64,000 nt of DNA from Girardia tigrina (lineage: Eukaryota). Each line of letters opens with the position of its first letter. The first letter of the stretch is position 1. The notes under the pieces were generated by a model that was given only the letters and a program-made list of their open reading frames with translations, did not search any database and was not told the DNA's origin. A program made the translations under genes and the position numbers. The stretch lies in the NCBI GenBank assembly GCA_001938485.1, contig MQRK01220805.1:12757-76756 (forward strand), given 5' to 3'. This document shows positions 5,450 to 27,574 of this stretch, piece after piece.

Positions 5450-6000
5450 TTATTTGTTCTCTGTGATTGAAGTCGTACAGGATTGTTCTGAACACAAATC
5501 TCCAATTCTTAAACCTTTACTTCCCTGAGCCACAACTGGACTGGCTACAAGATGTCTTTCATTGTTGTCGTTTTCTGTAGCGTTTGACTCGTAACCGATG
5601 GAACGGGAATTGTCGGATGAATGTAGTATTAGAGGTTCAAACGCTTGATAAACTTCATGACATTTAGGATTTCCACATGTTTGATTACTACATATGCTTT
5701 TATTATTATTTAATTTTCTAGGATCATAGTAAATCGAGTTTCTATCGCTTGGAAAATATGAATATATTTGATTATCATTCACTCCATTGTCAGGATTACA
5801 AGAATATGGACGCATCATCGCCAACTCTTGAGCATTTACCTTATTTTCTATAATGAACATCATAATTATTTGGATTAGTATTATAAAATTTTATTAACCT
5901 TGCGAGCTGTTTGATCGTCTCCATAATATCCACATAATGTAGAAGGTGAGGTTGCATATCAGGGATATAATGAAGGCAATGAATAGCATCAGATTGAGCC
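5450..6000 (-). CDS. Last two exons of a single-pass membrane protein: TM exon 5899-6000 and cytoplasmic-tail exon 5450-5847
   Basis: AG|GG CTC AAT... gives GLNLMLFIAFIISLICNLTFYIMWILWRRSNSSQ (hydrophobic run then RR). A 51-nt GT-AG intron (5848-5898) joins it in frame to ENKVNAQELAMM...TENK*. Confidence 0.75.
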
Positions 6001-6591
6001 CTATTTAATTATTAACTAACATCATACTACTTCAATATATAACAAAATAAAAATTTATAAAATTAATTTTTAAAAAAATATTTTTCTGTGATTCTTAGAT
6101 AAGATATCCTTAATATTGGAAGATTTATACTGTCGAGAACTTTTTTTAGGTTTTCAAACTTTACAAATATTTTTTGTATTTAAATATTTAAAATTTATTA
6201 TTTTTATTACATATAATAACTAAATTATTATGCATAAATTTTTGTTTAATTATTTTATTCATTTTTTTTATAAAATATAAAATATATGATCCTATTTTAT
6301 TCGGCGATTATTTTATTATAATAAATAATTAGTATCATTAATAATTTCAGTAATTTTTATTAGTATATATTATTATTGATTTTTTTTTAAATTATTGTGG
6401 TGGAGTGGGTCGCGAAAATGATTATTAGGTAAGCAAGCCCCCTGGATTTTACTATTATTATGAGTAGGAGATTTTTGTCAAATAGATTCCTAAAAAGACT
6501 GTTTAAAAATATTGAAGAATTGTTACTAAAAGCTTCACTCTTAAAACTTGTAACTACAGAAGGTAATGCGAAATTGATTATTTCTTCATAT

Positions 6592-7018
6592 CAGGCGTGT
6601 AGCCAGGGGGGTGATTGGGTGGATTTCCACCCCCCCCTGATAAAATTCCCTAAAAATTGTTTAAAAAAATTATTACGAAAAACAAAACTTAGAGGAACAG
6701 GACCTCTCGTTTCCCCCCCCAATTAAAATCCAATTGGACGTTCCCATTTTAATCCACGTTTTCGGCCCTACTGGCGAGGCTGAAAACAAAGATTAATATA
6801 TAAACCGTTGATTGGATTTTAATCGGGGAGAAAAAAAGGAGGTCCGAGGAACGTTTAAGGAGCTTAAGGATCGTTTAAATTTAGAGGGTTAAAATCGGGA
6901 GACACCCCCACCCCTGAAAAAATTAAAACATAATTAGCCACCCCAATTATATTTAAGATTACTAGATCTTTCATGAATTTTTTTTCCACCCACCTCTGCA
7001 ATCCTGGCTACACCGCTG
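6592..7018. mobile_element. hAT-type MITE
   Basis: TIRs CAGGCGTGTAGCCAGG / CCTGGCTACACCGCTG; perfect 8-bp TSD CTTCATAT at 6584-6591 and 7019-7026. Confidence 0.9.
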
Positions 7019-8539
7019 CTTCATATTTCAATTGCAATCACCATAAACAGAGTCATTTTTGTACGAATTGTACGAATCTGGATGTTAAATTTGAGTTGAA
7101 AATAAATTTATTGAATCAATTCGAGTTATTCATATATTATTGTTGGAAGAACCTCTGATCTAAATCAACAAAATAATAAAAACAGAGCAGAATTTATATC
7201 GTTGCCATCTTGAGATCTACCTAAAGAAAAGCGCATCTGCCAAACTAAATTTTGGATGAGAAAGTAGTAACTGTATGTTCACAAAAGTTTAAAAACATTT
7301 TCTATCACTTTCAATGCATTTTTTATTTTATAACTTGAATTATAATAAACTTTTGATTTATAATGAACTTCAAACATGTGTGACATATTTTATACAATTA
7401 ACAAGAAAAGTAATCTGCAAACAGTTGCAACACATGTAGGACCAAGATGGAATTAGAAATAGTTTTAACAGATTATCAAACTTTATATATTTAAACATTT
7501 ATAAAAGAATAACTAATAAAAGAAATAACAGATGTGTAAGAATTTAAGTAATTAAAATATTTAAATAAACTTGTTGGGAGCGTTGTTGAGTTCATAAAAT
7601 TTTTGAATTTACAATCTTATCAAATTAATAATTAAACAATTACATACCGTAAAATATTGCTATAGATATGTTAAGATAAGATTTTCAGAAATTTAATGTT
7701 AAAAATAATTTATGTAAGAAATAAATTAAATTTTACGGTAGGTTTATTAAAAGATTTATGCAAATATTTATTACAAAGTAAAAAAGTTAATTTCAAATTT
7801 GATGAAAATATTTAATTGAAATAAAATCAAAAGTAATATAAAGTTTAATATTTTATTTGCGAATTGAAAGTAAACTAAACTATTTTTTGTAACTTTTATC
7901 GACTTAAATGAAAATGCGATTTTAATTTTATTTTGGAAAACGTAATTATTAATGGAAATATAATTTCATTTTTTATGTAAAAAAGGGGTAATTTAAAATT
8001 TGTTAAATTAAACGAAATTACTATTTTAAATTCTATTTTCAAAACATTATTTTATTAAATCCAAAGTAATTTTAAAACTATTATGAAAACGAAATGAAAA
8101 GTGCTATTGTATAGAATTGGGAAATTTAATTGAGAAACAGGTAAATTTAAATGTCCAATAAAATTGAAATTTAATTAAAGACGCAACAAAATCTTTGTTA
8201 CAAAATTTTAATAAAATCATTTAATAATTTTTTATTAAAAAAGTACATAATTTTAATTCGTAAAAAAATACAATAACCGTATTTATATTTATCAATTCTT
8301 ATTTATAATGGTTTGTGTAAAAGGAAAGTGCAAAAATTCCTCGAAAATATTTGTTTAAAAAAACTCAAATTGTGCTAGAAATAAAGTTTTGTGTTAATGA
8401 CAACGTCTTTTGATCAAGAACCCAATAAAGATTATTTAAATATAGGAAAATGACATGCAGACCCACCAAAAAGAATGTATGACTTATTGTCTTTATTGAT
8501 AAAACAAAGTCCGGATGAAAATCTTCTTTTAATAACCAA

Positions 8540-9730
8540 AGTCATCTATTAAAAAATATATTTTAAGACAATATATTTCGACGGATCTACCGTCATCTTC
8601 AGGTCACTAATTAATAATCAATTCACCTGTATATAAATACAAAAATGATGATTATNNNNNNNNNNNNNNNNNNNNNNNNNNNNNNNNNNNNNNNNNNNNN
8701 NNNNNNNNNNNNNNNNNNNNNNNNNNNNNNNNNNNNNNNNNNNNNNNNNNNNNNNNNNNNNNNNNNNNNNNNNNNNNNNNNNNNNNNNNNNNNNNNNNNN
8801 NNNNNNNNNNNNNNNNNNNNNNNNNNNNNNNNNNNNNNNNNNNNNNNNNNNNNNNNNNNNNNNNNNNNNNNNNNNNNNNNNNNNNNNNNNNNNNNNNNNN
8901 NNNNNNNNNNNNNNNNNNNNNNNNNNNNNNNNNNNNNNNNNNNNNNNNNNNNNNNNNNNNNNNNNNNNNNNNNNNNNNNNNNNNNNNNNNNNNNNNNNNN
9001 NNNNNNNNNNNNNNNNNNNNNNNNNNNNNNNNNNNNNNNNNNNNNNNNNNNNNNNNNNNNNNNNNNNNNNNNNNNNNNNNNNNNNNNNNNNNNNNNNNNN
9101 NNNNNNNNNNNNNNNNNNNNNNNNNNNNNNNNNNNNNNNNNNNNNNNNNNNNNNNNNNNNNNNNNNNNNNNNNNNNNNNNNNNNNNNNNNNNNNNNNNNN
9201 NNNNNNNNNNNNNNNNNNNNNNNNNNNNNNNNNNNNNNNNNNNNNNNNNNNNNNNNNNNNNNNNNNNNNNNNNNNTTTTATACTTAAGTTCACAAAAACT
9301 ATCTGGTGAAGTATATAAACCTGTATCAGTTTGCTTCCTATAAATTCCAGTCTCGTAACTAAGAGATTTTCTTTCAACCAAAAGATCTAGAAAAAAGAAA
9401 AAAAAGATCCATTCCTTTCATTTTCAACTGTAAAAGTAACATTTGAATGTAACGAATTCATAAAATTTAAAAATGGAAGTACATCAGCCTGATTTTTAAA
9501 AACTAGGAATATATCATCAACGTATCGTTTATATACTAAAGGTTAATTTCCATCAAACAGTTTAATTTTGTTTTCAATCTTAGAAAGAAAAACAGAAGCT
9601 AACGTTGGTGCTAACGATGAACCCATAGCAACCCCATCAGTTTGCTTATACCACTCATTATTAAAAAGAAAATGAAAATTCGATGTTGCAAAGCTTATTG
9701 TCTTTAAACCAATTTTGTTCTCAAGCAATT
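8540..9730 (-). mobile_element. Penelope-like retroelement fragment (RT, gap, 3' end with hammerhead)
   Basis: Minus-strand RT motifs FLFNNEWYKQTDGVAMGSSLAP, YKRYVDDIF and IYRKQTDTGLY; spans the N-gap; hammerhead core at the 3' end. Confidence 0.85.
8567..8605 (-). ncRNA. Minimal type I hammerhead ribozyme
   Basis: Reverse complement reads GAC CUGAAGA U GACGG-UAGAU-CCGUC GAAA UAUA UU GUC: intact core, 5-bp stem II, palindromic mini stem III, GAC/GUC stem I. Confidence 0.8.
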
Positions 9731-10009
9731 AACTATGCTTATTGTGAACCTCTGGACATGTGCAAATTTTTAGCGAGTTGTGATCTTGGGTGGATGTGAT
9801 TTTATGTACCTTAGCGATAGGAAAAACATTGAAATAATTTGTGTGACTTCGTGTCTTGGAGTCAGGGGGACTTTTTTCACATCTTGAGCAGTTGAGAGAT
9901 AATATGTTTGATGTAAAATTAATTAATATGTAAAAAACGTATATATAAAAATCTCTTGTTTTCTAATAAAAGAAAATTTTCTAAATGTTAACTGTAACCC
10001 TACTTTTGA

Positions 10010-10490
10010 CCCTGCAGTATATTTGCATGATAATTCATACCCTGCCCTACCAAAAGTCTTTGGTAAGTAGCTTTTTCATACTTTTAACTGGTCGCAATGA
10101 ATTCTATAACATTTAAACCCAAATAGAATGCAGAAGATAGGTGAGGCAATGGAAAAAATAGTGTTTAGTACAGTTTCCTCTTATCACTGCTCTTACCCGG
10201 TTTGGCATAGAATCGACCAATTTTTTCACGAGCTGAGGAAGAATATTTGCCCATTCTTCCCGCAGCTGAAGTTCCAATTCAGTGGCATTCCGTAGAAGCC
10301 ACTGCCTTTTACGAATGCGTCGATGTACCGCATCCCAAAGGAATTCGATTGGGTTCCAATCGGGGCTTTGTGGCATCCATTCCAGTACATTTATGCCACT
10401 TGTTTCGAAGAAATCCTTAATGAGGTGCGACGATTTCTGGGAGGAATGGAAGTAGTTCGTGTTCAAGGATTGCTCGGTACTCATGGAATT
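10010..10490 (-). mobile_element. Tc1-like transposase C-terminal remnant
   Basis: VLEWMPQSPDWNPIEFLWD...LREEWANI...LVDSMPNRVRAVI, typical of the Tc1 DDE C-terminus. Confidence 0.85.
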
Positions 10491-10599
10491 CATGTTATAA
10501 AATAATAAGAAATTATTAAACTTAAATGTTTAATGAATGTTAATTTAAATTAATGCAAGTATTGTGTTATGTTATCTACGTTATACATTCCATTTAATA

Positions 10600-10960
10600 T
10601 TGAAAGTTCAATATATACTGGATTTGTCGACAAAAATGATTGAATGTGCTATTAGGCTACAAAATGAAGGTTACAGTTATCGCAAGGTTGAAAATTGAAC
10701 ATAGAGTTATGGCATCTGACATTCGAAGGATTTGTGAGCGCTTCTAAGCAAGTGGCAGCTTTGCAACAAACGAAGAACGGTAAAAGAAAAAAAACTTCAT
10801 TCTTGATAACTGATAGAAGAATACCGAGGTTATCACCACACAACAATAGAACAATATCATGAGACACGAGCAAGACTTTTTTTGACCCAGGAGTGGTTGT
10901 TTTTAATAGAATCGTCCTGTTTAGATTGTTTAGTTTTACAATTTTAGACAATTTATGATA
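10600..10960 (+). mobile_element. Probable Tc1 N-terminal (HTH) remnant
   Basis: Degenerate frame resembling a Tc1 DNA-binding region (SGSFAT...GKRKKTS..TDRRI); many stops. Confidence 0.4.
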
Positions 10961-12759
10961 CCAACGAATAAGAAGAAAATATCCTCGTTCAATGTAACGA
11001 ATTTATTTATTTTTAAATTATATTTTTTAATTATAATATAAAATCAGCGTTCGCAAGACTCAATACTAATAATATACCAATAATAATTATATACCATTCT
11101 ATAGGTTATAGTTATTTTCCTTCATTTTGGGGGAATATAAAAATATAATGAATTATCATATTTTATTGTATAATTAAGAAATATCGTTGTGGTCTACCAG
11201 GTTCTTCATGGTCCATCTCAAAGGGGTGTACCTCACAGATGGAAAACACGTGGGTTAAATTTTACGTCTAATAATGATAAGTATCAAATTGTCTATTAAA
11301 ATTAAAATTAGAATTTAAAAATAAACGAAAAATCAAAAAATAGATATTGTTTATTTTCAAACTGACAAATATTGTAAATAAATATTTTTTTTCAGATTTC
11401 CAGTATATAAATTAAATGTTTTTTTCAAGAAAAAATAGAATATTTTTGGTGGTTTGAAAATCATGTAGAGGAAAATTTAAAATAAACTAAATTTACTAAA
11501 TCTGATGATAAATCAATTTAAAATAATTATTTTTAATTTCTAAAATTATATGGATTTACTTTATTATATTTTTTGATATTTATTTTAAATTTAATAAGTA
11601 AAAATTAAAAATAAATTATTTTTATTATACTTTATTTAATTTAAAATATAGTCTTTGAAAATTTTAAAATTTATTTATTATTAATTAAACATTATTTTAT
11701 TGTCTTTTTTCTTTTTGATAAAATTTAGAGTATATTTTTAATAATCGATAATTAATTTTTCTATTATAAACGCGTCTTAAAAAAATAATGATATTAAATA
11801 TATTTAATTAATTTTTTTTAAATTCGAGTAAAGGTAAAACTAAATAATATAATGAATAATGATTTATACCAAAATTATATTAAAAAATAATATATCCAAC
11901 TGATGAATGACATTTATGAAGTCAAAATAGCTGGTTGGCGAATGGAAGCAGTTGATCTGTTAAAAAATCAAGAGTGAATATTTTGTTAAGAATATTTATT
12001 ATTTCGCCCCCAAAGATAAACATTAAAACCGAACCACTTGAAATCATAAATTAAAAAAATTAAATAATTCAAAAGGTTACGAGATTTATTTTTCAAAATT
12101 TCTCTCGAGACAGAAGATTGGGTAAGATCCTTCTTTTAAAAGACGAAAAAAACTAAAAAAGAAATAAAACAATCGAAACAATTCTATGGACATACAGTTT
12201 AATAACCCTCAAAGATATTTTTTATGAATTATAATTTGAAATCAAATTATTTTTTTTATTTTTTTTAACCATGTGAGGTTCAAAGGGTCTTTTGGGAATA
12301 CAAAGGAATACAAAAAATGTCTTGATTATTAAATATATAATATATGTATTTTTACTTTGTGTTCTCAATTTTACTTAATTCTTTAATAGGAAATACATAA
12401 TATAACAGTCGGTCACGATAAATACAGATTCAATTTTGTTATTTAATTGTAAAAGATGATTCAATTATAGGGTGAACCCACGGCCAAAAATATGTATAAT
12501 TATAATAATAAATTATTATTACTAATAATGTTTGTTTTTGGTTTAATTTGAACCTTGATTCGACATTTCTAGAACGACTGATTAATGAATAGTCATATTG
12601 AGTTATATGTTGATATAGCGTTAAGTAAAGGCTTTACTTCACCTAATAATTATCAGGTTGTCGAGTATGACACTTGTAGGCATGGTTACAATAAATTCAA
12701 ATAGCTATAATTTGTAAATGACTTAACATTTTGTTGTCCAGTTTTTTATGTTTGATTGC

Positions 12760-13882
12760 TATATACATATCTTGACTATTGAACACATTAATAAAAATTA
12801 ATTAAAATTATTGATAAATTGATTTAATAATCAGTATTTTAAAAAATGGAAAAGGCAGAAATTTGAAATATTATGAAGTACGAGTTTCTACGTCGAACAT
12901 CAGAATCAGAAACTATGCGAAATATCAATAGTGTATTTCGATACAATGCTACTGCGCAGCACACAGTCTCCAATTGGTTCAGGAAATAATTACCTCAATA
13001 ATAAGTCTCGGAGTCGCTCAAGAACGCAGGTAGACAATGACGAAGTGAAGGTAATCATAGAGTCGGATCCATCACAAAGTGCTCATGATTCATCGCTAAC
13101 GTTTGCGATTACAAAGCAAACAATATTGAATCATTGGGTTGAAATTGGTAAAGTGAAAAAGTTGGGTGAGTGGATTCGACATGAGTAGAATGAAAACCGA
13201 AAATAAAAGTGTTTGAATGCATACTTGATGCTTTATCGTTATAAATATGATCACATTTTTGAATCGAATCGTCACTTGTAAGGAAAAATAGATCCAATAT
13301 TATAATCGCAAACGTCCAGTAAGCTGGATTGACACCAAAGAAGCACCAAAACACAACTTTCATAAAAAGAAGCTGATGGTGAGTGTTTGGTTGTCTCCCG
13401 CAGGTGTATTCATTTATGACTTCATGAAACCTCGATGTCTACTGCAACCTGTTGAAAAATATGATGTAGAAACTCTAAGAAAAGCAATCGCGTTTGGTAC
13501 AAAAGTCGACTCTCATCTTGCTCCACGACAGTGCAAAATCACGTACTGCAATTAAGACAGTGACAAAACTACAGGAACTTCTTCATCATCTTCTATACTC
13601 ACTAGATTGAGTCTCAACTGACTATAATTTCTTCCTCAATTTGAGAAAATTTTCGATTATGAAAAATTCAATTCCGAAGATGCCGTAAAAATGGCCTTCC
13701 AGAAATTTATAGATTTTCACCTACTAAATTTTTATTCAAATGGCCTCAAGAAGCGGCCACTCAGATGATTAAATTGTGTCAATAATATGGGTGCATACTT
13801 TGATGAATGAAAAATATTTGTATTGAAAAATTAATTATAAAATTTGACTTTAGTTCTACAAATTTCATACTTGAAGACCTAA
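12760..13882 (+). mobile_element. Degenerate mariner, cecropia subfamily (Dtmar1-like)
   Basis: From 12847: MEKAEI*NIMKYEFLR...NINSVF, then KVKKLGEWIRHE, HKKKLMVSVW, ILLHDSA, NNMGAYFDE; 3' TIR ...ttcatacttgaagacctaa-TA. 5' boundary approximate. Confidence 0.85.
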
Positions 13883-15039
13883 TACCATTAAAATTATATT
13901 AATTATCGAATAATATCTGTCTAATCAACGAAAGAATTTTAGCATTATGTAGACATATGACAAAAGTTACAACGTATTGACAAAGAGACACAGTGAATTT
14001 GAAAAGCTTATAGATAAAATCCAATTTTTTATAGTCAATATGATAAATGAAGTTATAAAATTAAAGTTAAAAAAAACATACATCCCATTGTTATTTTTAT
14101 GAGTTCCAGAAAGAAAATGTATTTGATAAGGGACTCCAAATCTATGCGAAAGTTTTTGCAGAAAGTTTTATAATTCCAAAGTCAAACTTTAGTTTAAAGG
14201 GTTTTAATATGAAGTTTTTAACTTTGCAAATACAAGTTGTATTATACAACTCAAAAATGTGAAGCAGATGCGCGCCATGCTGCGATTAGATAGTTGGAAG
14301 TTAAAAGAGAGTTTTATTTTAACATGGAAAAAGGTTCTAATGACCCTCCATATTCTCTTGACATTAGTCTTTCGACTTGACTTATTGTGTTCTCTGTCAA
14401 ATTATATAAAATAGAAAATGCTCAAAGATCCTTCTAACGTATTTTGTTTCATCCAGTTCAAGCATTTACTTTCAATACAAAAAAGAATTCATGGAAAAGT
14501 TTGTTGTTTTTCGAATATAAAATTTTTTCATTCGATATGTTTTTATCATTTTAATAAACTAATTTATTTGTAGAAGACCATCTAAATATTTTATTTTATT
14601 TTAATTCATATAAAAAATTGAAAATAAATTAATTAAATGAAATAAACTCGCTTTTTTTTGATTTAAAAAAATTATATTTTCAAAAAAATATAAAAACAAC
14701 TTACAAAATTTTGGATGATCTCGTTTCTCTTTGACTGAGCTCATCGAAAAATTATTTTCATTTTTTCCTAAAATAATAAAAAGAATTAAAATTTCAGGAA
14801 AATATTTATTTATTTGAGAATTAATGATAATTTTTATGAATGATTTTTCAAAGTTACTTTTCTTGTTTTTCTTGAAATATTTTTGATATTATATTCATGA
14901 AAGACACTTTCTCATAATATGTTACGATATAAAACATGTTAAAATATAAGATTTTGTATGAAACTACCTTTGTATATGTATTAATACTGTAATATAAATG
15001 AAAAGATTTTGTTTTGCAAGTATGCACATAAAAACATTA

Positions 15040-15790
15040 TAACAATCGATAATCCAAAAATCTGAGGAGCGACAAACGAAAATGTTTTAGATGTAATAAA
15101 TTTTGACACATCAAACGATTTTGCAAAGCTTTAATTTGCTACAAATGCGGCGGTAACCACAAGACAACAAGTTGCTCAAACCTTAAATCTGTTAAGTTGT
15201 TTCAGGAAACGGAGTTATCGGAATGCCAAAATTCAAATTCGATCTCAGAAGTAAGTAGAAATAATGAAAGGCAAATTAACTCATTGGCGAAAACTAAGCC
15301 CCTGAAAAAACCGGATCTAGTTGACCAATATGTATCTTAAATTAACGGTACAACAACGAAACCGAAACGTTCACTTTACAAAGAAGCGCTATTAAAAAAT
15401 CTGCCGTTAGCAAATAAGCCGATAGTTCAGTGTTCAGTTCGAAACAGTAAGATTAATTTTATGTTTGATGCAAGTGCAGATTTGAATGTTGTAAGTGAAA
15501 ACTTTGCAAAACAACTATCTCAGCTAGAAAATTTAAAAATTTATCCGTCAGAAACAAAGGTAAAATGTGCTAAATGTCAGGTGGTTAGTTGTAAAGGCAT
15601 GGTAAAGTTATCGGTAAAGGCTGGTTCAATTTTAACCAAGCATGTATTTGATATTATGCCAGATATGTTTATCGGATTACGAAGCATGAAAAAATGTGAC
15701 ATAATAATTAGATCAGATATTGATGCTGTTGAAATAGATAAGATAATTATAAGTACTGTGCGGAATATTTTAAATTGTTTGAATGTGTAA
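15040..15790 (+). mobile_element. Ty3/Gypsy gag-protease remnant
   Basis: Zinc knuckles CFRCNKF*HIKRFC and CYKCGGNHKTTSC, then retropepsin-like MFDASADLNVVSE. Confidence 0.75.
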
Positions 15791-16289
15791 ATGTATTAAT
15801 AATGTATGTTGATTTAAGTATGTTGAATTTAGAATGGTGATTCTCCCACCCAGATGGAAATTGGTATTTTTCTATTTTTAAAGTGATTGACTATTCGAAC
15901 ATAATTAAAATAATAATTTTATAAGTTTATATTTTTAAAATTAACTATTAAAATCAAGTTAATATTTAGCAAAAACGAAAAACATTTTAATAGATATAAA
16001 TAAAACAAATAAAATTTAAATTTAAAATCATTTTTCACAACTTGATGACATTTTTATTATTTTGATGTTTTATATAAAGAAATGGTTAAAATTATTATTT
16101 TGAATTAATGTTTTGTGGATATTAAATATTTTTAAAAAAGATTTAGAAAAATGTTCGAATAATAACTTACAACTTTAACACTTTATAAATTTTAAATCAG
16201 GCTTATCCTTATTTTTTAATAAATACAGAAGGATTTTGAGGTTCTTAGAATAGAAGGTCGTAATGATAAGCGGACTTAATAATAATAAA

Positions 16290-16790
16290 ATTTATTGACA
16301 GTGGTTTCACCATTTCGATATCTTATGCGTAATGAAATTGAAGCAATTAACTGCTATACATTTATTTAGTTGAAAATTATTATACCGTTCACCTAAACAA
16401 TATTCTTTAAATACCTTTATGATGGTTAGATGAATTACGGTCCATGTTAAAGTATGATTTATGATATTTTACAATTATATTACAATGCTTCTGTAATGAT
16501 TGTTTCATACTTTGTGTCAAAATTATTTAAAATTCCGTTAAAATTTTCATCATGACCATCACAATATCTATTTTGAAATTGGTTACTTAAGGTCTTAATC
16601 GAGCTATTCCTACTCGATGGAGTATGTTCATCAATTCTACAACAAAAAGGACGATTGGCTTGCCTATGTAGAAGACTTCACCCTTTGTATATTTGAATCG
16701 ATAAACTAGATTTGCCTTAATACAAAAAGGAGTTTTCGATTTATTAGATAAATAATGTCGACATTTATTATCTGAGACAAATAACAATCA
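16290..16790 (-). mobile_element. Penelope-like GIY-YIG endonuclease remnant
   Basis: KSKTPFCIKANLVYRFKYTKGEVFYIGK, a PLE GIY-YIG signature; possible decayed hammerhead near 16297-16330. Confidence 0.7.
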
Positions 16791-16810
16791 TATACAATTA
16801 TATATGTATA

Positions 16811-17914
16811 GTGGGTTGAGTCAAAAGTTATTCATATTTTTTAGTGAATTAAAGTTTTTGTTTTATCAGATCATTTAAGTCTAACATTTATATGCAACAT
16901 TTTGTATCATTTTAAAGCCCACAAAAAGTGAATCAAACTACTTTTTAAAAGTTAAATATTTAAACTTCCTTCCACTATTTATTCATGATTTATTAGGACA
17001 TTATTGGAAAAAAAGGCCTAACAGTCGCAACTGTGACTCGAGAAATCTGCAATGGAAAAAAAGTACTAGCACTTGTAGGCTGTCTGAAGATCACGGCCAT
17101 TCTCAAATTAACATTATTCGTCATCTGCATATCTTGGGTTTGTAAAGAAAAATCCACTTCAAATTCCCCACAAATCGATAAATATTCAAATCCAGTGTCG
17201 AATTGATCTTTACCGCGAACTACTCAATAACCTCCGGGACAGCCGTTTTTAGACCAAAATTATTACAGAAAATGAAAAGTGAATTTTCTTCCGTAATTCT
17301 AGTGGAGATAAGCAATGGCTGCAGTAGGATCAGCCAAGTCAGCTAGTAGTTCGTCAAGGTCTCATCAAAAAGAAGGTGATGTTGTGTGTTTGGTGGATTT
17401 ATGATGGATATGTGCACTGGGAACGTGTTTCTGATGATCGAGCAATCAATGATAACCTTTATGCTGAACAATTACAGCGATTTCAGGATGATTTGAGCAC
17501 TTGCTACCTAGGATTGTTGAATCGCGATGGAACAATCGTACAGCATGACAATGCTCCAGCTCATACATCACGAAGGGTGAAGCAGAAAATTAAAGAACTG
17601 CAAGGCATAGAAGTCATTCAACACCTAGCGTTTAACCCAGACCTTGCCATTTCTGGATATCATCTGTCTCGGTCTCTCTGAAACTTTTTTTTTATCAGGG
17701 AGACGCTTTGGTTCAGAGGAGGAGGTCAAAAGTGGAATCACCGAATTTTTTACCTTTATGGTATAGCTAACAGATTGAGCCCTTGGCAGAAAGATTGGTT
17801 CAGGTCATTAAAAATGGTGGAATGTATTTCGAGAAAAATATAATCAGTGTCATAAAAAATTTGTGTAAATATAATAGTAACATAAAAACATGGATAACTT
17901 TTGACTCATTCTGG
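16811..17914 (+). mobile_element. Degenerate mariner with TIRs
   Basis: TIRs TA-gtgggttgagtcaaaagttattc / ggataacttttgactcattctgg-TA; KKVMLCVWW, QHDNAPAH, HLAFNPDLAISGYHL. Confidence 0.9.
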
Positions 17915-18656
17915 TATATGTATACATGGGTTGAAATTAATTTCGGCATCAGCCATTCTTACTATTGGAGCTTTGAAAAGCTATATAGTACTGAAAGTAT
18001 ATTCAAGGCGTTCGTTTTTAAATTACTGTCTACTATTTACATCAACAAAGCACTTAAATAATAAGCCTAAAAATTAATTACAACTTTGGCTAAATAATCT
18101 AGCCTAAATTGAACATTGTCCAACTCGCGGCGGTTCCTTGAAGACTGCAAAAGTTGATGCATAATTGATATTAATTTTCATTGAATAGGTTAGACGAAAG
18201 TTTGTCTCGATAGCACTATATTATTATGGGGGAATTCTTATTTTTTCTATTAAAAAGCAATTTTAGAATTCTATCACGTGTAGAATTGTTTCATATATTC
18301 GGAAAAGTGCAACATAACACTGTTGCCATTTTGTAAATATCAAATGTGCACAAGTATCGCATGTATCACGATGTCTATTATACGTATCCACGATTTCCAG
18401 CGAAACAGAAGCTCAGGAAATATGTTATACTAATAGATTTTTAATTAAAAAATTATATTCTTGGAATTTTATTATAAGTACCGAAACTTTCTTCTATTTT
18501 TTAAAACCAATTATTTCAATCCGAGATTATATGATTATTAAATGAATTAAGAACTGTTGGATCAATATTGAGACTTTAGGGAATATAAATAAACTTGAAA
18601 AAAGATGGCAATTTTTTAGTAAAAACAAATAAACGCCATTTAAAAATATATTTTTT

Positions 18657-18695
18657 GATAATATATGTCGATGGTTTAACCGTCATCATCAGATC
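18657..18695 (-). ncRNA. Hammerhead ribozyme copy with mutated core
   Basis: Reverse complement GAT CTGATGA T GACGG TTAAA CCATC GACA TATA TT ATC; GAAA has become GACA. Confidence 0.6.
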
Positions 18696-20054
18696 ACTGA
18701 TTATGTTCATTTTTATTGCTTTTATAAAAGAAATGAATTATTATGTAATCACTTACGTAAGTCTAATCAAAAACTATTAACAAATTGAATGTACTGTTTG
18801 AACATTGATTTTTTGATCACATGATCTTATAAATAATGCTTTACGTGACACTCACCCAATAATTTTTAAAATGCTTGCACAAAATCTTAAAATTATTTAT
18901 GCTCATATTATTCTTGGTCTCTTTCTTCTACGTTTTAAAAATCTATTAAAAGTAATGATACATTGAGTCAGGCAATGTTTTAACATAGTAACTGGGCACC
19001 CATTCGGGTGCCCAGTCATTGATTAATAAATGAAGTGGGCACCCGCCTAGAATATTCCATCTTCTAGAAGCTCCATCTTCCTCAACCTCCGTATGTAACT
19101 GGTTTATCGGATAAATTTTACTTTAGAGATAAACTTTATCTTTCTTTATCGCTCGCTCCCCCATTTTGACTCTTACTCTTTGCAGCACGCAAATAGACTG
19201 ATTCATAACCTCATTGTTCTGATTATAATCACAGTCCCATGTCTATAGATCATGTTGTGACTGTGCATGTGTACAGTAGATAACCACAGTTATTTATTGA
19301 AGAATACTAAAAGTTATTTTCCTTTGGTTTGAAAAAGATTCATTTCAGAAAAATAGGTTTCATTTTCATGACATAAGAGGGTGTCAATTAAAAAAACTGT
19401 TAAAGTATTGAGCAAGTTATTGAATAATAACGGTTAATCTAAGTCTATCATAGACCGACTCACTTGTGAGACAGTACATAAAATAATTGAAAAAGAAAAA
19501 ATTAATAATGAACAAATTAATAGTTTAAACATTGAAAACTGCTTTACACATGGGTAAACTCTAAGCTTACCTTACTCCGAGGAGTTTAAACACTTAAAGA
19601 ATTCAATCTTGAAATCAACAAATAATATTTTAAATTTAAAAATTGTATCTCAATCATTTAAAGTTGAGAATATGTTTTGCAATAAATCACATACTCCTTT
19701 AGGGTTGTGTTCAGACATTGTTTATCAATACACATCTAATGGGTGCAATGCCACATACATTGGAGAAACTGCCCGTCATCTCTGCAAACGAGTCCAAGAA
19801 CACAGTCAAAGAGAGGGAAAGAGTAATATTGCTGAGCATAAAGAAACGTGTAACTGTAATATGAGTATAAATGATTTTAAGATTTTGTGCAAGCATTTTA
19901 AAAATTATTGGAAGATAGTGTCATGTGAGGCATAGTTGATTTGATCATGTGGTCAAAAAAATCAATGTTCAAACAGCATTCTCAACTAATTTACGTAAGT
20001 GATTGAATTGTCATTCATTTCTTATAAAAAACAATAAAAAAGAACATAATCAGT

Positions 20055-20093
20055 GATCTGATGATGACGGTTAAACCGTCGAAATATATTATC
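20055..20093 (+). ncRNA. Minimal type I hammerhead ribozyme (intact core)
   Basis: GAT CTGATGA T GACGG TTAAA CCGTC GAAA TATA TT ATC. Confidence 0.8.
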
Positions 20094-20639
20094 AAAAAAT
20101 ATATTTTTAAATGGCGTTTATTTGTTTTTAGGGAATATAATAATTTTTTTAACCACTGAAAATTATTAAGTTTTATGGACAAGGGTAACATTTATATAAT
20201 AATTCAAATAAGTGAGAATTCAACCCTTCCTGTATAGATGACCCTTTTTCGGGTAAGAAAGCGTTTTTGCAACAACTACAAATACTATATGATATCGCAA
20301 AAGTGCCATTTTTTGAGCATATAAAGCTCTTATTTTTGATGTGAAAGTCAGCATAAGACGTTCGTAATTTGAGTGCTGTTTGCAATTTTGCAGCTTTTTC
20401 AGTAAAGTCGATGTTTCGAAATTTAAATTATAAACTTATATTATATAGTTAGTAATATTTATATTTCGAATACGGGTAACAAATTTTTTCCTGTCCAAAG
20501 ACAGTTTTTCAAATCCTTATAGAATCACTTTTCGTTTTTATTTGTTAAATGTCACTATCGTGTGATGTATTTGTTTAAATCCACTGAATGTGGTATTAGT
20601 GTTTCTTTAAAATAAAACTTGTGCGTTGTCTGCAGTTTG

Positions 20640-21320
20640 TTTCTTACAAGCTGCCGCGGCCAAAGAGGTTCGCTCCAAAGATGAAAATTCTCATGGTGGC
20701 TTGATTGAATGGCGGGACGACGGCGGCAATGATTTTGGCGAACAGGGACCGATTGATCGGCGTTGAAGAGCTAGGAAAGACGACACGATGAGCTCAAAAT
20801 GAAGCATCGCGAGAAGAAGCCGTTCCTGCTGATGACCGATGGCGGCGACAGTGCTGATGCCCCCGATCACCAAACGAGATTCGAATGAAAACGAGGGGTG
20901 CCAGTCAGATCAGTTTCCAGCGGACTGTTTTGTGGCTAGTTGAGGGGGACGTCGAGGCCAGTGGTGGTGCCCGAGGGGATTGCGGAATTAGTGGCGATTT
21001 CGACGAGTGGGACCGGCTGGTCGCTGGTTTTATTTCAGTGGCGATTCAAAGGATCAAGAGGGACATCATGATCACGGTCGGAGACGGTAAAACGCTCCGC
21101 GGGGAGCTCGAGGTAGCCGAGAGAGTGAACCGATAAGCGTTGAGAACGCTCGTGCTCGGTCGACAGGGACTCAAGTTGCGGTTGTGCGCGGCATTAGCTA
21201 CAGCAACCGGGGAATCGATGTTCGGGTAAGATCGGACGATCAAAAGACGGGTATCAGGGACGTTAGGGCGATCGAAAAACGGGTCGCGGGGATTTTGGAC
21301 AGGATCGAGTTATGGATAAA
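20640..21320. other. GC-rich island of unknown origin
   Basis: Abrupt shift to roughly 55% GC (visual estimate) and CpG-rich; no recognisable motif in the short ORFs. Confidence 0.5.
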
Positions 21321-23265
21321 ATGTTACACGAACATTGAGTAAAAGAATTTTTAGTTACAAAATTTCATTGAGAAAAAAAATTTCATAAAAAAACATTTTA
21401 TTGCAAATTAATTAATTAAAAATCAATACGGTGAAAAATATTTCAGTGAAAAGAAGTTTGATAAAAGTAATTTACATATGAGCAAATATCCGTGTGAGCA
21501 AATGTTATGTGAGGAAACGTTCGGGAACCGTTTCTGCATAATTACGCTCAGTTGAAATGACGAATTTTATTTTCAAATTGGTCATTTAGAAATTAAATGG
21601 TTCAACATAAATCTATTGAACATCTTGCGAAACGAACTTCATCAATTCCTTTATAAAACGATTTATATTAATTTTTTTTATTTTATAAATGAAATTTTAT
21701 AAAAATTTTATAAATCCTATTCTCAAAAGGCGATTTGAGAAAAAAATTCTTCGAAAAATAATAAAAAAATCTTTAAAAATTTTTTTTCAGCTTCAACGAA
21801 GTCGACATTGTGCTCGTAAAATGAATTATTTTCGAAATATTAAATAAAAGAAAAAAAAGGAACTCTAAAGATTCAAGAAAACTTTGATAAATGAATGTTT
21901 TATAAAATTAATTTACGAATCATAATATACATTTAGGAAAAAATGTAATTTTAAAGACAAATTTTACAAGAAAAGAAAGAAGAACATCTTTTATCGAGGG
22001 AAAAATGTTTTTATTTTCATTTAAGTCGAATTCCACAGTTTTATATTGCCGTAATTATGGGACGAGTTTGACATATTTTATGATGAAACCACACTGATTT
22101 TATAACAAATAAAATGGGACAAAATACATTTAATGAAACGATAAATATTTATCGTTTTTATAATATTTTTTATATATTGTTGAAATAAGTTAAATGAAAA
22201 ACAAACTCGACTTTGATTTTCTACATTAAAATAGAAAATGATAAATAAATTAGTACTTGTGAGAATATATCAACTCAATTTAATTTGTTGTAAATATAAA
22301 AATAATATTATTAAATCAAATTGATATTAATAAATTATATTAACAAATAAACAATAGTTAACAAACAGTTCAATAGGAAGATGTAAATTAGGATCAATAA
22401 AAGCAAGAAAAGAGACCTTTAGGAAGAATGTTATGAATTAATGTTACTTTGATGATAGTATTTGATCATTGTAGTTGATGTAGAGGTAATTGATCCGTTT
22501 GATGAGAAGATTGAGGACGAAATTAGGATTGAATATAAACAAGAATAGAGAGATAAAGTGACACAAATAAATGCGAATGAAATTTTACGACTTTCGCTTT
22601 TTGTATATTCGAAATCAAAACTGCTATAGGAACTGGATTTTGATTATTCGGAGTCATTTGAGAGAACAAGATCGCACTTCTCCAGTATTAAATCCGTTTT
22701 ATTGTGAAATTAATTTATTCGTAAAGTAATAGCCTCATATGCACAGAAAATAAAAATTAAATCAAAATTGTTAATTATGAAATCCGAACCATCGATAAAA
22801 AGTAATTATTTTTATCGATTTAATTTAATAATAATAGTATATATTACCACATTTTTCTTAGCTTGGTTTCTTGTCTGTCTGTCTGGAACAAATCTTGCGA
22901 TTGATTTTTCGACCACTTTCAGTCATCCAATTGAGCTGATTTTTTTTATACAGGCTTGCTTCCGATGACAATACAATATTTTAAAACATTTACTTTACGG
23001 ATGTACGGAAAAAATTAATAAATTGAACAAATATAGTGAAAATCAAGTGATAATTAAGTGTAGAAGTATTAAAATTAGGTTTAAAAATTATTTTGAAATA
23101 AAACTTGCTTTTATTAAAATAAAACTTTGTTATTTTGGTTTTATTATCATTTCTNNNNNNNNNNNNNNNNNNNNNNNNNNNNNNNNNNNNNNNNNNNNNN
23201 NNNNCATTTCTGTTATTCGAAATCAATCGAAAGATTTGAATTCCTAAATGATAACTAAAAATAGT

Positions 23266-23646
23266 TAAATAATATTATTAATAAAAAAAATTTTTTTATA
23301 AAAACAACCACGTTTTTCAAGCACGTTTTTCAATACACTAAAAAGAGGAAAATAATATTTTTCTAGACATGTGCGAAATTTTATACCTAACCAAAAACGT
23401 GGGGCATAGAAATTATCGATTGTTACTAAAAAGCAGTAAAGAGGAAATAGCAGTTACTAATAGCAGTAATTCAGAANNNNNNNNNNNNNNNNNNNNNNNN
23501 NNNNNNNNNNNNNNNNNNNNNNNNNNGTTAGGTATAAAATTTCTCACATGTCTAGAAAAAAATTATTTTCCTCTTTTTAGTGCATTGGTAATGCTTGAAA
23601 AACGTGGTTGTTTTTATAAAATTTTTTTATTAATAATATTATTTAC
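23266..23646. repeat. Foldback/MITE-like long inverted repeat around a gap
   Basis: About 23266-23391 is an imperfect inverted copy of about 23527-23646. Confidence 0.7.
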
Positions 23647-23862
23647 ATGTTTAATTTAAAAAAAATATACATAAATATATGACAAGGTATGTCACTACAT
23701 AAATTACTATTTCTATTTTTTTGACTACTTGTAGGGTTTATTTCAAAAAATTTTATGAGCTTTTTTGTAGGAAATGAAAAGAGGAAAATATCAGTTCTAA
23801 GATCCTTCAAAAGAATCAGCAATGAAAAAGATACATTATTAATAAAAATTATAATAACCTAC

Positions 23863-24337
23863 CTGAATGTTTTTGGAATTCTTCATGATTTACTAAATCT
23901 GGATTATATTTTTCAATGAAAAGTTCATTTGATTCCTTTCCACCATAAACACATCGCCAATTTCCACTAACATTAAGTTGCTTCAAATCGATTCCCCATG
24001 AATATCTTGTGGATGTTTTAGAAATAGATTCTTTGAAACACGTTGTTAAAGCGTCATCACAAGGTTTTCCTTTACAGAATGAATAGCAGCCACTATAACA
24101 CAAGCCAGAGCCGATTAACGGGCAACGAAGATACGTTTCGTATTGAATGTTTTTGGTATTAACAACATTACAAGTTAGGATAATTCTCTCCGCCGAGTAC
24201 TTTACGGTGAGTGTAACTGGATTATCGAAAAGACCTAAATAATTTTTAACAAATAAATCATTGATCTTACTTTCAAGACAACGGGCCATCAACGGAAAGC
24301 TCCAACAAACGAACGATAACAATAAACTGAGTCTCAT
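23863..24337 (-). CDS. First coding exon: signal peptide plus divergent Cys-rich Ig-like domain
   Basis: MRLSLLLSFVCWSFPLMARC signal-like start at 24337; Ig-like IILTC ... SGNWRCVY framing six additional Cys; ends at phase-1 donor CAG|GTAGGT. Confidence 0.8.
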
Positions 24338-24755
24338 TATGATCCAATTAAACGAAATAACATAAAATATATATCTTGAAGTGTGTTGCGTTATGTAAAA
24401 ATGATATTTTTCTATTAATGTATCAATTCCTCTTAACGTAAACACTTTTCTAATTCTAGAAGAATGTAGATGTAAATAAATAATGATGTGCGGGTCGGTG
24501 TGCTCTTCCCGCATTTTTCGAGCCCCCCACGAATAATCAGTTCTATTGTGACTCATACACAAACCGAATGTGCTAAACAAATATTATCACATCTTTCCAT
24601 TTTCTTTAAATATGTTTTCTGAGTTTTAATTTATTTTTGTAAAGAATCCTCCCCTAGAAAAATCAATAAAATTCTTATTAATAATTAAAATTCCTAAATA
24701 ATATTACAAGTATGTTAGATAAATAAATTCCTTAGGGATAAAATTATTTTACATT

Positions 24756-25075
24756 TTATTATCACAATATATTTTATTATAAATTAAAATTGCCCTTATG
24801 ATATTTATCAAATATTGTGTTTTTTCGTATTGATTTATGATTATTATCATTTTTATTTCTAGAATACAAATAATAACTTTGCATTTAATTAGGCTTGAAT
24901 AAATATCAAAGAAGATCTTCTTTGATATTTATTCAAGCCTAATTAAATGCAAAGTTATTATTTGTATTCTAGAAATAAAAATGATAATAATCATAAATCA
25001 ATACGAAAAAAAACAATATTTGATAAATATCATAAGGGCAATTTTAATTTATAATAAAATATATTGTGATAATAA
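24756..25075. repeat. 320-bp palindrome with no loop
   Basis: Centre GAAGA|TCTTC at 24915/24916; 160-bp arms with one mismatch seen (24819 G vs 25012 A). Confidence 0.95.
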
Positions 25076-26273
25076 TATTGTGATTAAGCAAATTATTTAA
25101 GTAAGTTTTTATCATTTTTTAATATATTTTTTGAAATATTATTTCTCTGTATTTCTTATACTCTTACTGCTTTTGTTTCCACGTTTTTTAGTAATTTTAT
25201 TATAAATTTTAATATATTTTTATTTCTTGATATTATTACTAATTATTTTGATAAAAATAAAAAAAAACTATAAAAAAATATTTCATTAATAAAAAATTAA
25301 TTATAAAAATATTTTTTATAAAAAAAATTTAAAAAATTAAAATATTTTATAATTCCGTTTATACAAAAATTATTTTTCATTTTAATTTTAAGTGTAAAAG
25401 TTTGATAATATTATAATTTTAAAATATTTATAAATATTTTTATTTAATGATAAAAAATAAAACATTTATGAACAAAATAATTAATAATTTAATTAATGAA
25501 AAATAATTATTAAAATTAAATTATATTAATTTAATTCAAAACAATTAATCATTAAAAAAATTTATTGACGATTATTTTTAAAAGATATTTAAAAAATAAA
25601 GTATTTTTTTATTCTTTTTATACGAAAATTACTTTGATTTTTAATTTAAATTTTAAAGATAAACGTTTGATTATATTATAATTTTAACATACCTACACAA
25701 ATGTTTATTTTTAATTTTCAAAGCAAAAATGTATTTTTTTAAACGTCTTGAAGCTCTAAATTTAAAAGATTTGTAAAAGATTTTTTTCATTGAGAATTTT
25801 TTTTATAAATTAAAATTATTTAGATATGAAAATGCCAATTAGTCGCAAAAGAAGTAAATAATGAAGGATCCAATATCCGTGTTGGGAGAGATAATCAGAT
25901 ATATCAAAAACAAGAAGCTAATTTCCATTAACATGACATTTTATTTTAATATTCACTGAAACTTTAATATAAACATCTGGGTTCATTCGAATTTGTATTT
26001 TATCGCTAAAATTATTATTATTATAGAGGAAAATAAATTTCATTTTTCTTCAAATTTTCATATTTTTTGTATTAAAAATAAATAATTTTTTAATTAAAAA
26101 ATAAAATTTAATTTTTAATAAAATAAAATATTATATTAAAAATTAAAAACCCCTTTTAACATGTCTTATTTTCTACACAAATATTATCCAAAAAATTAGC
26201 AAATTACTTTTTGATTTATGAAAATTATTCCAATTTATTAAATTTAATTACGCAGATAAAATTTTTTTATTTA

Positions 26274-27574
26274 TTGGGTTGAGGAATAAGTTCCTGCCGT
26301 TTTTTGAAAAATTAAAATTTTATTTTTTAACAAAAAAGTTACTACAAATTAATCACAAATATAATCTCCACCATTGTTTACGACTTCTTCCCAACGTTCA
26401 ACGAGTTTTTCAATGCCTCTTTGGTAGAAATCGCCCGGTCTTGACTCGAAGAATTCAGCCAACCAAACTTGCAGTTCTCCATCATTGTTGAACGAAACAC
26501 CACGCAAAGCGTTAGAAAGCGAACGGAAAAGATGAAAATCAGATGGAGCCAAGTCAGGTGAATACGGAGGGTGCGGTAACACTTCCCAACCAAGTGTTTG
26601 AATGGGTTCTTTTGTCATTCTGGCAATATGAGGACGTGCATTGTCGTGTTGCAAAATAACACCATGTTGTCGATTCGGATGTTTTTGTCTTATAGCGGCG
26701 TTGAGTCTATGCAGCTGTTGAACATAAAGTTTTGCATTCACTGTTTGGTTTCGAGGAAGCAATTCATAATGAATAATCCCTTCCCAACCCCACCAAACGC
26801 ATAGCATTGTCTTTCGTGGATCCTGTTTTGCTCGTGGTGTCGATTGTTCTTCTCGGCTACGCCATTCTTTGCGCTGTTTCATGTTGACGTACAGGCACCA
26901 TTTTTCATCACCCGTTACAATTCGATAAAGAAATTGTTGCTTATGACCGTGAGTAGAGCGATGACGGGCAATCAAACTCGCCGAAATTGTGAATCACTGG
27001 TTTTTGTTGTTTTCTGTCAAAAGATGTGAGACCCAAGCTCCCATTTTTTGAACTTTTCCCATTGATTTCAGGTGGTTCACGACAGTTTTTTGATCACAAT
27101 CCATTTTTTCCACCAATTCTCGAGTGGTTTGATGCGCGTCTTCATGCAAAAGTTTGTTCAAACGCTCTTCATCGAATTCATTTGGTTGTCCTGAACGAGG
27201 AGCATCCTTGAGGTCAAAATTGTCAATTTTAAATTTTGCGAACCAATAACGAGCGGTTCTATCAGCTATAGCACCTTCTCCGTATACAGCTCAAAGCTCT
27301 CCGGCAGCGTCTGTGGCTTTGGCGCCCCGATTATACGCAAACAATAGATGGTGTCGGAAATGCTTATTTTTGTCGACTTGACACTCCATTTCAATGGTCT
27401 AAAAATCGACAAAAATTAATCTGAATAAAAAAACAAAATACACCATTTTTTAGAGCAAAACAATAGCTTTCAAATAACATATAACATTACATCAAAAAAA
27501 TTGATTTAAATATTAAATTGATTAAAAATTGATTAAAAATTCAAAAAACGACGGGAACTTATTCCTCAACCTAA
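26274..27574 (-). mobile_element. Near full-length mariner (1.3 kb) with disrupted transposase
   Basis: TIRs TTGGGTTGAGGAATAAGTTCC / GGAACTTATTCCTCAACCTAA with TA; ATG at 27389 (MECQVDKNKHFRH); TGDEKW, HDNARPH, YSPDLAPSD (DD34D); stop and frameshifts in the 5' half. Confidence 0.95.

Follow-up and report, generated by a model that had tools for sequence, protein, structure and literature searches.

A predicted V-type immunoglobulin exon of Girardia tigrina belongs to an unnamed eight-cysteine flatworm family and is probably joined to a distant transmembrane exon

We analyzed a 64,000-nucleotide stretch of the Girardia tigrina genome (contig MQRK01220805.1, positions 12,757 to 76,756), hereafter the window, in which three minus-strand blocks may form one gene: an exon for a cysteine-rich outer domain (exon 1), a transmembrane (TM) exon (exon 2), and an exon for a cytoplasmic tail (exon 3). 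Judged by sequence, the exon 1 protein almost certainly belongs to an unnamed flatworm family with eight cysteines that includes the kin of Schistosoma mansoni Smp_163930, and models of its ectodomain predict with high confidence an immunoglobulin (Ig) fold of the V type. That the three exons form a single gene, spliced across 17.9 kb, appears probable from the sequence features described below. On balance, we favor the reading in which the resulting 324-amino-acid (aa) single-pass protein, with an eight-cysteine, predicted V-type outer part, acts as a cell-contact receptor.

Exon 1 starts at an ATG at 24337 and stays open for 475 nt up to a donor site (G/gtaggt) after 23863, ending in phase 1. 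Its leader is hydrophobic, the signal peptide being judged from hydropathy only, and the mature part carries eight cysteines: C56 (in IILTC), C72, C80, C84, C88, C93, C100, and C129 (in SGNWRC). An earlier note on this DNA, made from its letters, had described a signal peptide followed by a Cys-rich Ig-like exon ending in phase 1, with six extra Cys and no C-strand Trp. The exon itself is confirmed from the sequence and the fold by prediction; six additional cysteines were counted, and the predicted C strand reads TYLR (residues 68 to 71), with an invariant Leu and no canonical Trp. Exon 2 spans 102 nt, is preceded by AG and followed by GT, and begins in phase 1, as the same note had said of an orphan TM exon; it also ends in phase 1. 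Joined in frame, the three exons encode 324 aa with a single TM segment at about residues 162 to 180. Their GC content is 35 to 39%, in a window of 28% GC. By exact sequence match, none of seven window open reading frames (ORFs) was present in the protein collection.

A full phmmer scan of the exon 1 protein against 1.84 billion representative sequences returned seven matches, six of which share a common Cys pattern (E values of 1.5e-7 to 8.6e-4). These are proteins of Paragonimus, Schistocephalus, Trichobilharzia, Clonorchis, and Cichlidogyrus, together with record P0002; five of the six are named flatworm proteins. The remaining match, the 1196-aa repeat protein P0001, lacks the Cys pattern and was dropped as spurious. 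In the alignment of the seven family rows, L-x-C-P, three further Cys, and W-x-C are invariant (7/7), and the window domain is 23 to 30% identical to its relatives. A profile search of longer proteins gave 12 matches among 6515 candidates, 11 of them named trematode proteins, Smp_163930 included. Named family members are all annotated as hypothetical, unnamed, or uncharacterized, barring a UniRef label on P0004, which no Pfam match backs. Pfam Ig families matched none of the seven aligned members, and the exon 1 protein retrieved nothing from Pfam or from word-indexed homolog searches over two length ranges. Sequence searches of solved structures with the domain gave nothing useful, and the metagenome contigs searched held no relative of it.

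The earlier note had proposed a lineage-specific gene. In a narrow sense this is not borne out, since trematodes, a cestode, and a monogenean all have relatives. Within the family tree, the window protein groups weakly with P0002 and the cestode protein; none of the nine inner branches is well supported, so the tree resolves no orthology with the trematode group. A protein language-model search placed unnamed clusters, mostly molluscan, in its top rows (0.92 and 0.89, with recognition values below threshold), which offers no more than a hint of a wider lophotrochozoan family. No paper on Smp_163930 or six other family locus tags was found in a literature search that covered text other than supplementary tables, which may list them. 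Nor did a topical search, covering papers outside subscription and few supplements, find a description of the family; a flatworm family of eight-cysteine Ig-superfamily receptors is apparently undescribed so far. As a separate observation, four schistosome gene models (P0031, P0019, P0023, and P0018) break or start within the Ig domain, a hint that in schistosomes several exons encode the domain, which occupies a single exon in the window.

The AlphaFold2 model of the window ectodomain, built from a 16-row alignment, is a beta-sandwich (mean predicted local distance difference test score, pLDDT, of 76) in which strand B carries C56 and strand F carries C129. When compared with 48,161 solved chains, it was closest to a T-cell receptor (TCR) V-delta domain (Z 9.8, root mean square deviation [rmsd] 2.7, 96 residues), followed by CD8 alpha (Z 9.6) and nectin-like 1 (Z 9.3), and 90 chains reached a Z of at least 8. 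The check that the earlier note had set beforehand, structure prediction and a fold search, thus returned an Ig-like, V-type beta-sandwich. A model of the Clonorchis ectodomain agrees (CD8 alpha, Z 9.8, rmsd 2.4, 93 residues; Foldseek 7.9e-4), but the two models are not independent because their alignments have rows in common. V-set Ig (0.91; 48% of members) is among the results of the language-model search as well, and matches among viral folds were weak (best E value, 1.1e-3). The missing C-strand Trp and the lack of a Pfam V-set score lower the case for a canonical V-set domain, not that for an Ig fold. The six extra cysteines sit between strands C and D, and the predicted disulfides are the B-F bond C56-C129 plus three more in the C-C'-D region. 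The joint loss of C88 and C93 in P0007 suggests that these two may pair.

Part of the evidence for a single gene comes from the relatives. Of 38 family records (P0002 to P0039), 27 have a single TM segment, and all 27 carry S-x-x-x-N within it. These 27 stem from six trematode genera and make up one ortholog group, whose genes include S. mansoni Smp_163930, C. sinensis CSKR_110740, O. felineus CRM22_010101, and S. japonicum EWB00_008524. Since the full-length trematode relatives are single-pass proteins with S-x-x-x-N in the membrane, as in the window TM exon, they support a common gene. Over its two strands, the window has 117 open stretches that are TM-like; four contain S-x-x-x-N, and only the exon at 6000 adds at least two basic residues after it. 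Downstream of the exon 1 donor, 14 of 372 open phase-1/1 candidates are TM-like, at 10 acceptors, and exon 2 ranks first of the 10 by crude splice weights (1.5 versus 1.2 for the next). In addition, the older Clonorchis annotation places the ectodomain (P0008) and the TM segment with its tail (P0009) on separate contigs, while a later model joins both, in keeping with a long intron at the corresponding position. The protein resembles the trematode group in its eight-Cys domain with L-x-C-P and G-x-W-x-C; if the three exons form one gene, it would also share the single TM segment with S-x-x-x-N, removable as a unit outside phase 0, and a Tyr-bearing tail. It differs in its domain, 23 to 27% identical to theirs, and in its shorter stalk and tail; the trematode motif YDEVHNS[VI]YTT and a C-terminal LEDW are both missing.

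Several observations weigh against this reading. Both junctions are read from genomic sequence, and three assembly gaps lie between exon 1 and the TM exon, so the join rests on scaffolding; exons may be hidden there or blocks mis-joined. These gaps (720 N) did not figure in the earlier note. Scored by a profile of eight trematode TM segments, the window TM stretch comes only 231st among 513 reported (E 45), and the trematode tail profile ranks the window tail 73 of 1104 reported (0 bits), so that no similarity to trematode tails is detectable by that profile. The S-x-x-x-N comparison was picked after the relatives had been seen, and these form one ortholog group. P0002 and the cestode protein, the weak tree partners of the window protein, have no TM segment on record. 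Codon usage does not discriminate; even exon 1 scores near zero. As for the fold, Foldseek gave the window model no match at an E value of 0.001 or better; its best row was ZIG-8 IG1 (2.4e-3), followed mostly by antibody V domains. In the tail, at least two YxxPhi motifs arise in 37% of 10,000 shuffles, which is chance level, and neither YDEVHNS[VI]YTT nor the general consensus patterns of the immunoreceptor tyrosine-based inhibitory, switch, and activation motifs (ITIM, ITSM, and ITAM) were matched. Overall, the claim of one receptor gene stands as regards the type I single-pass architecture of the trematode relatives and the compatible phases, whereas the 18-kb join is no more than likely.

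If exon 1 and the distant blocks belonged to two genes, which we consider improbable, exon 1 would encode a secreted single-Ig protein, ending by read-through (...SGRLL*) or at a near acceptor, and the TM segment and tail would derive from another gene, which would start at an ATG at 5989 or draw on an upstream exon concealed in one of the gaps. Read-through and near acceptors do yield short ends, and an AATAAA lies at 23742; yet this hexamer occurs at 3.1 per kb, and near acceptors are common. The ATG at 5989 opens a 162-aa product, an adaptor with almost no ectodomain, but the TM exon opens directly at an AG, in the phase left by exon 1. The assembly gaps and the lack of a profile match for TM segment and tail also fit two genes, as does the absence of a TM segment on record in P0002, P0004, and P0007. 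Such TM-less records, however, look like partial models, and the ectodomain-only record of Clonorchis was later joined to a TM segment. A search for a better leader-bearing exon found none: of 21 minus-strand ATG ORFs of at least 50 aa at 6040 to 36000, none that runs to a phase-1 GT has a more hydrophobic leader than exon 1.

The 324-aa model might instead be incomplete, with one gene holding extra exons, such as a stalk exon, in the gaps or missed elsewhere. Between the F-strand Cys and the TM segment lie 33 aa in the window versus about 47 to 73 in relatives, which speaks for this, as do the 720 N in the interval; the direct join is nevertheless in frame, and Clonorchis appears to hold domain and stalk in one block (P0008). 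We consider additional exons distinctly improbable. Least probable of the alternatives is a local anchor, in which exon 1 would splice to 23727 or 23724 and gain a 24-aa hydrophobic end (a TM segment or a glycosylphosphatidylinositol [GPI] signal), as in Dpr/DIP-type proteins, leaving the distant TM exon unrelated. This segment is as hydrophobic as the distant one (2.47 versus 2.42), would require an intron of just 135 nt, and accords with ZIG-8 IG1 topping the Foldseek rows. However, its 18% GC contrasts with that of the three exons, its codon score is the lowest of four tested, and it lacks S-x-x-x-N. Moreover, its end falls on the border of an inverted-repeat element, comparable hydrophobic runs follow 26 of 817 phase-1 acceptors, and full-length relatives carry long tails.

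The earlier note had proposed a secreted form via an acceptor at about 23805. The site is real: an AG before 23804, with A at -3, would close a 58-nt intron and end the protein as ...KHSGS*. Yet a T-rich AG 45 to 70 nt downstream, leading to a stop in no more than 15 codons, accompanies 54 of the 341 donor-like sites of the window, and read-through stops as quickly from 193 of the 341, so the proposal falls at chance level. Skipping of the TM exon, as annotated in two trematode genera, seems from sequence comparison a better-grounded soluble route. Of the four isoforms of O. felineus CRM22_010101, two include and two omit a 37-aa segment that contains the TM stretch. In the Trichobilharzia szidati model, the corresponding segment is missing and FD becomes FE across the junction, a change incompatible with phase 0 there. 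Both cases come from gene annotation. Skipping of exon 2 in the window gene would keep the frame and give 290 aa; that this symmetric exon is in fact skipped there seems to us rather unlikely.

The earlier note had stressed the tail motifs YSYF, YYDP, and YQAF. They are present, and the tail holds two YxxPhi motifs, but a signaling value of the three is not supported, given the shuffling result and the lack of ITIM, ITSM, or ITAM matches, and tyrosine signaling by the window tail is a tentative, somewhat doubtful proposal. MAFFT aligns EVYQAF of the window with YDEVHNS[VI]YTT, without statistical support. Of eight trematode tails tested, seven contain an ITIM and three an ITSM. Trematode tails more broadly (P0005, P0006, P0013 to P0017, P0019, and P0035) conserve YDEVHNS[VI]YTT and a W-x-x-D...Y-x-P-Y block, most with a C-terminal LEDW; in Clonorchis, Opisthorchis, and Paragonimus, the first motif reads as a tandem ITSM/ITIM. 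A C-x4-C-x4-C-H cluster, possibly metal binding or acylated, occupies residues 245 to 256 of the window model, and trematode tails carry a different juxtamembrane motif, C-L-D-x-x-L-C.

Taken as one gene, the window gene most likely encodes a type I receptor or adhesion molecule of the cell surface with a cell-contact role, as far as its architecture indicates. The disulfide-rich V-type domain would bind a partner, whether in the matrix or on a second cell, the polar Ser/Asn face of the TM segment could pair with itself or with an adaptor, tyrosines of the disordered tail might relay a signal, and an optional 290-aa soluble form could arise by exon 2 skipping. Binding, pairing, and signaling are proposed here because of the established behavior of single-IgV receptors. 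In broad terms, the mode of action would be like that of TIM, PD-1, or nectin-type receptors.

The window domain resembles V-set domains (CD8 alpha, TCR V-delta, nectin-like 1, and PD-1) in predicted strand order, B-F disulfide, 73-residue spacing, and Z scores of 8.6 to 9.8. In contrast, identity is 8 to 15%, Pfam finds no V-set match, and the domain has six extra Cys and no C-strand Trp. The V-set motif usually has Tyr at its F-strand position, where the window protein has Trp. Among the Wirins (Dpr/DIP, ZIG-8/RIG-5, and IgLON), ZIG-8 IG1 is the best Foldseek row, and RIG-5 and Dpr1/DIP appear among the structure-comparison rows listed. According to one source (PMC6525511), a Wirin carries two or three Ig domains and in most cases no intracellular domain, whereas the window protein and its full-length relatives have one Ig domain and a long tail. 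TIM receptors, as outlined in another (PMC10576709), combine one IgV domain with extra disulfides, a mucin stalk, a TM segment, and a Tyr-bearing tail. The window protein would share this outline of an IgV domain with extra Cys, a stalk, a TM segment, and a Tyr tail, but its stalk of about 17 aa is neither mucin-like nor Ser/Thr-rich (those of P0002 and P0007 are Thr-rich), and its six extra Cys lie in the C-D region, versus four in TIM that tie the CC' loop into a ligand cleft. No TIM-named entry was among the structure matches listed, and no solved structure matched by sequence. Three planarian Ig-like membrane proteins with RNA interference (RNAi) eye phenotypes, melanoir (dd_10408), Smed-siglec (dd_7073), and dd_13217, are called uncharacterized or named from predicted structure in their report (PMC13322009), and they may belong to the eight-cysteine family. 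Their six published primers matched no window exon at up to six mismatches, which carries little weight if the species differs.

Flatworm Ig-superfamily members are mostly only catalogued, according to an invertebrate review (PMC11999971). The present comparison connects a predicted Ig fold with proteins labeled “hypothetical” in Schistosoma, Clonorchis, Opisthorchis, and Paragonimus, and the window gene is likely a free-living flatworm member open to RNAi. The architecture as such (a single Ig domain, a TM segment, a Tyr tail, a long intron, and a TM-skipped isoform) is of a common kind; the value lies in a newly visible family with a distinctive domain. A bolder reading, which we regard as speculative and unlikely to hold in full, is an ancient flatworm-wide single-Ig family invisible to Pfam, combining a four-disulfide V domain without C-strand Trp, a cassette TM exon with S-x-x-x-N, a conserved skipping switch between membrane receptor and secreted decoy, and, in blood and liver flukes, a tandem ITSM/ITIM-like tail. 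If this were true, the tail would make the fluke protein a checkpoint-style receptor resembling PD-1 and TIM but of independent flatworm origin, and in schistosomes a candidate surface target.

The features of the gene model and the alternative sites are collected in Table 1. Within inferred intron 1, 17 N-free ORFs of at least 80 aa were scanned against Pfam; five match transposon-type domains (DDE, mariner transposase twice, GIY-YIG, and a gag-type protease; three of the five below the Pfam cut-off), and 12 match nothing. Its true length and content are uncertain because of the assembly gaps it contains.

Table 1. Positions in the window of the proposed exons and introns, assembly gaps, and alternative sites
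Feature	Position	Strand	Description	Basis or remark
Exon 1, coding part	23863..24337	-	Likely signal peptide (~aa 1-20), eight-Cys V-type Ig-like domain (~aa 39-146), short stalk	Sequence, relatives, AlphaFold2, fold searches
Inferred intron 1	6001..23862	-	17,862 nt, transposon remnants and three assembly gaps	
Assembly gaps inside inferred intron 1	8656-9275, 23155-23204, 23477-23526		720 N in total	
Exon 2	5899..6000	-	Transmembrane, symmetric phase-1/phase-1, S-x-x-x-N then RR	
Inferred intron 2	5848..5898	-	51 nt, GT...AG	Of three frames tried, only acceptor keeping the frame open
Exon 3	5450..5847	-	Cytoplasmic tail, 131 aa, 7 Tyr, stop TAA	
Alternative acceptor product of the earlier note (...KHSGS*)	23799..23804	-		Taken as a chance site
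Rival local terminal exon	23651..23727	-	24-aa hydrophobic end, 18% GC	Taken as a by-product of AT-rich DNA

About 415 nt upstream of the exon 1 ATG lies a near-perfect palindrome (24753 to 25078; 163-nt arms, 99% complementary, no spacer), which is either a foldback element or an assembly artefact. The inverted-repeat element mentioned above (23259 to 23652) sits just inside inferred intron 1, with one 50-N gap within it and another beside it. Mariner-type transposase remnants occur on the minus strand in two adjacent ORFs at 26349 to 27290 (Transposase_1, E value of 3e-21 for 26349 to 26993) and, judged by eye, at 51769 to 52449; identical 268-nt direct copies lie at 44524 to 44791 and 46792 to 47059. 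An island of 47 to 57% GC at 20600 to 21300 contains three ORFs without a Pfam match. Exon-like ORFs on the minus strand between 37146 and 55643, among them a Ser-rich one (37146 to 37859), one at 42366 to 42770, and a coiled-coil-like one (55206 to 55643), have no Pfam match above the cut-off and likely represent a multi-exon neighbor gene on the same strand. Finally, on the plus strand, an uninterrupted 232-aa ORF at 1112 to 1810, convergent with the tail exon, encodes three ankyrin repeats (Ank_2, E value of 1e-20).

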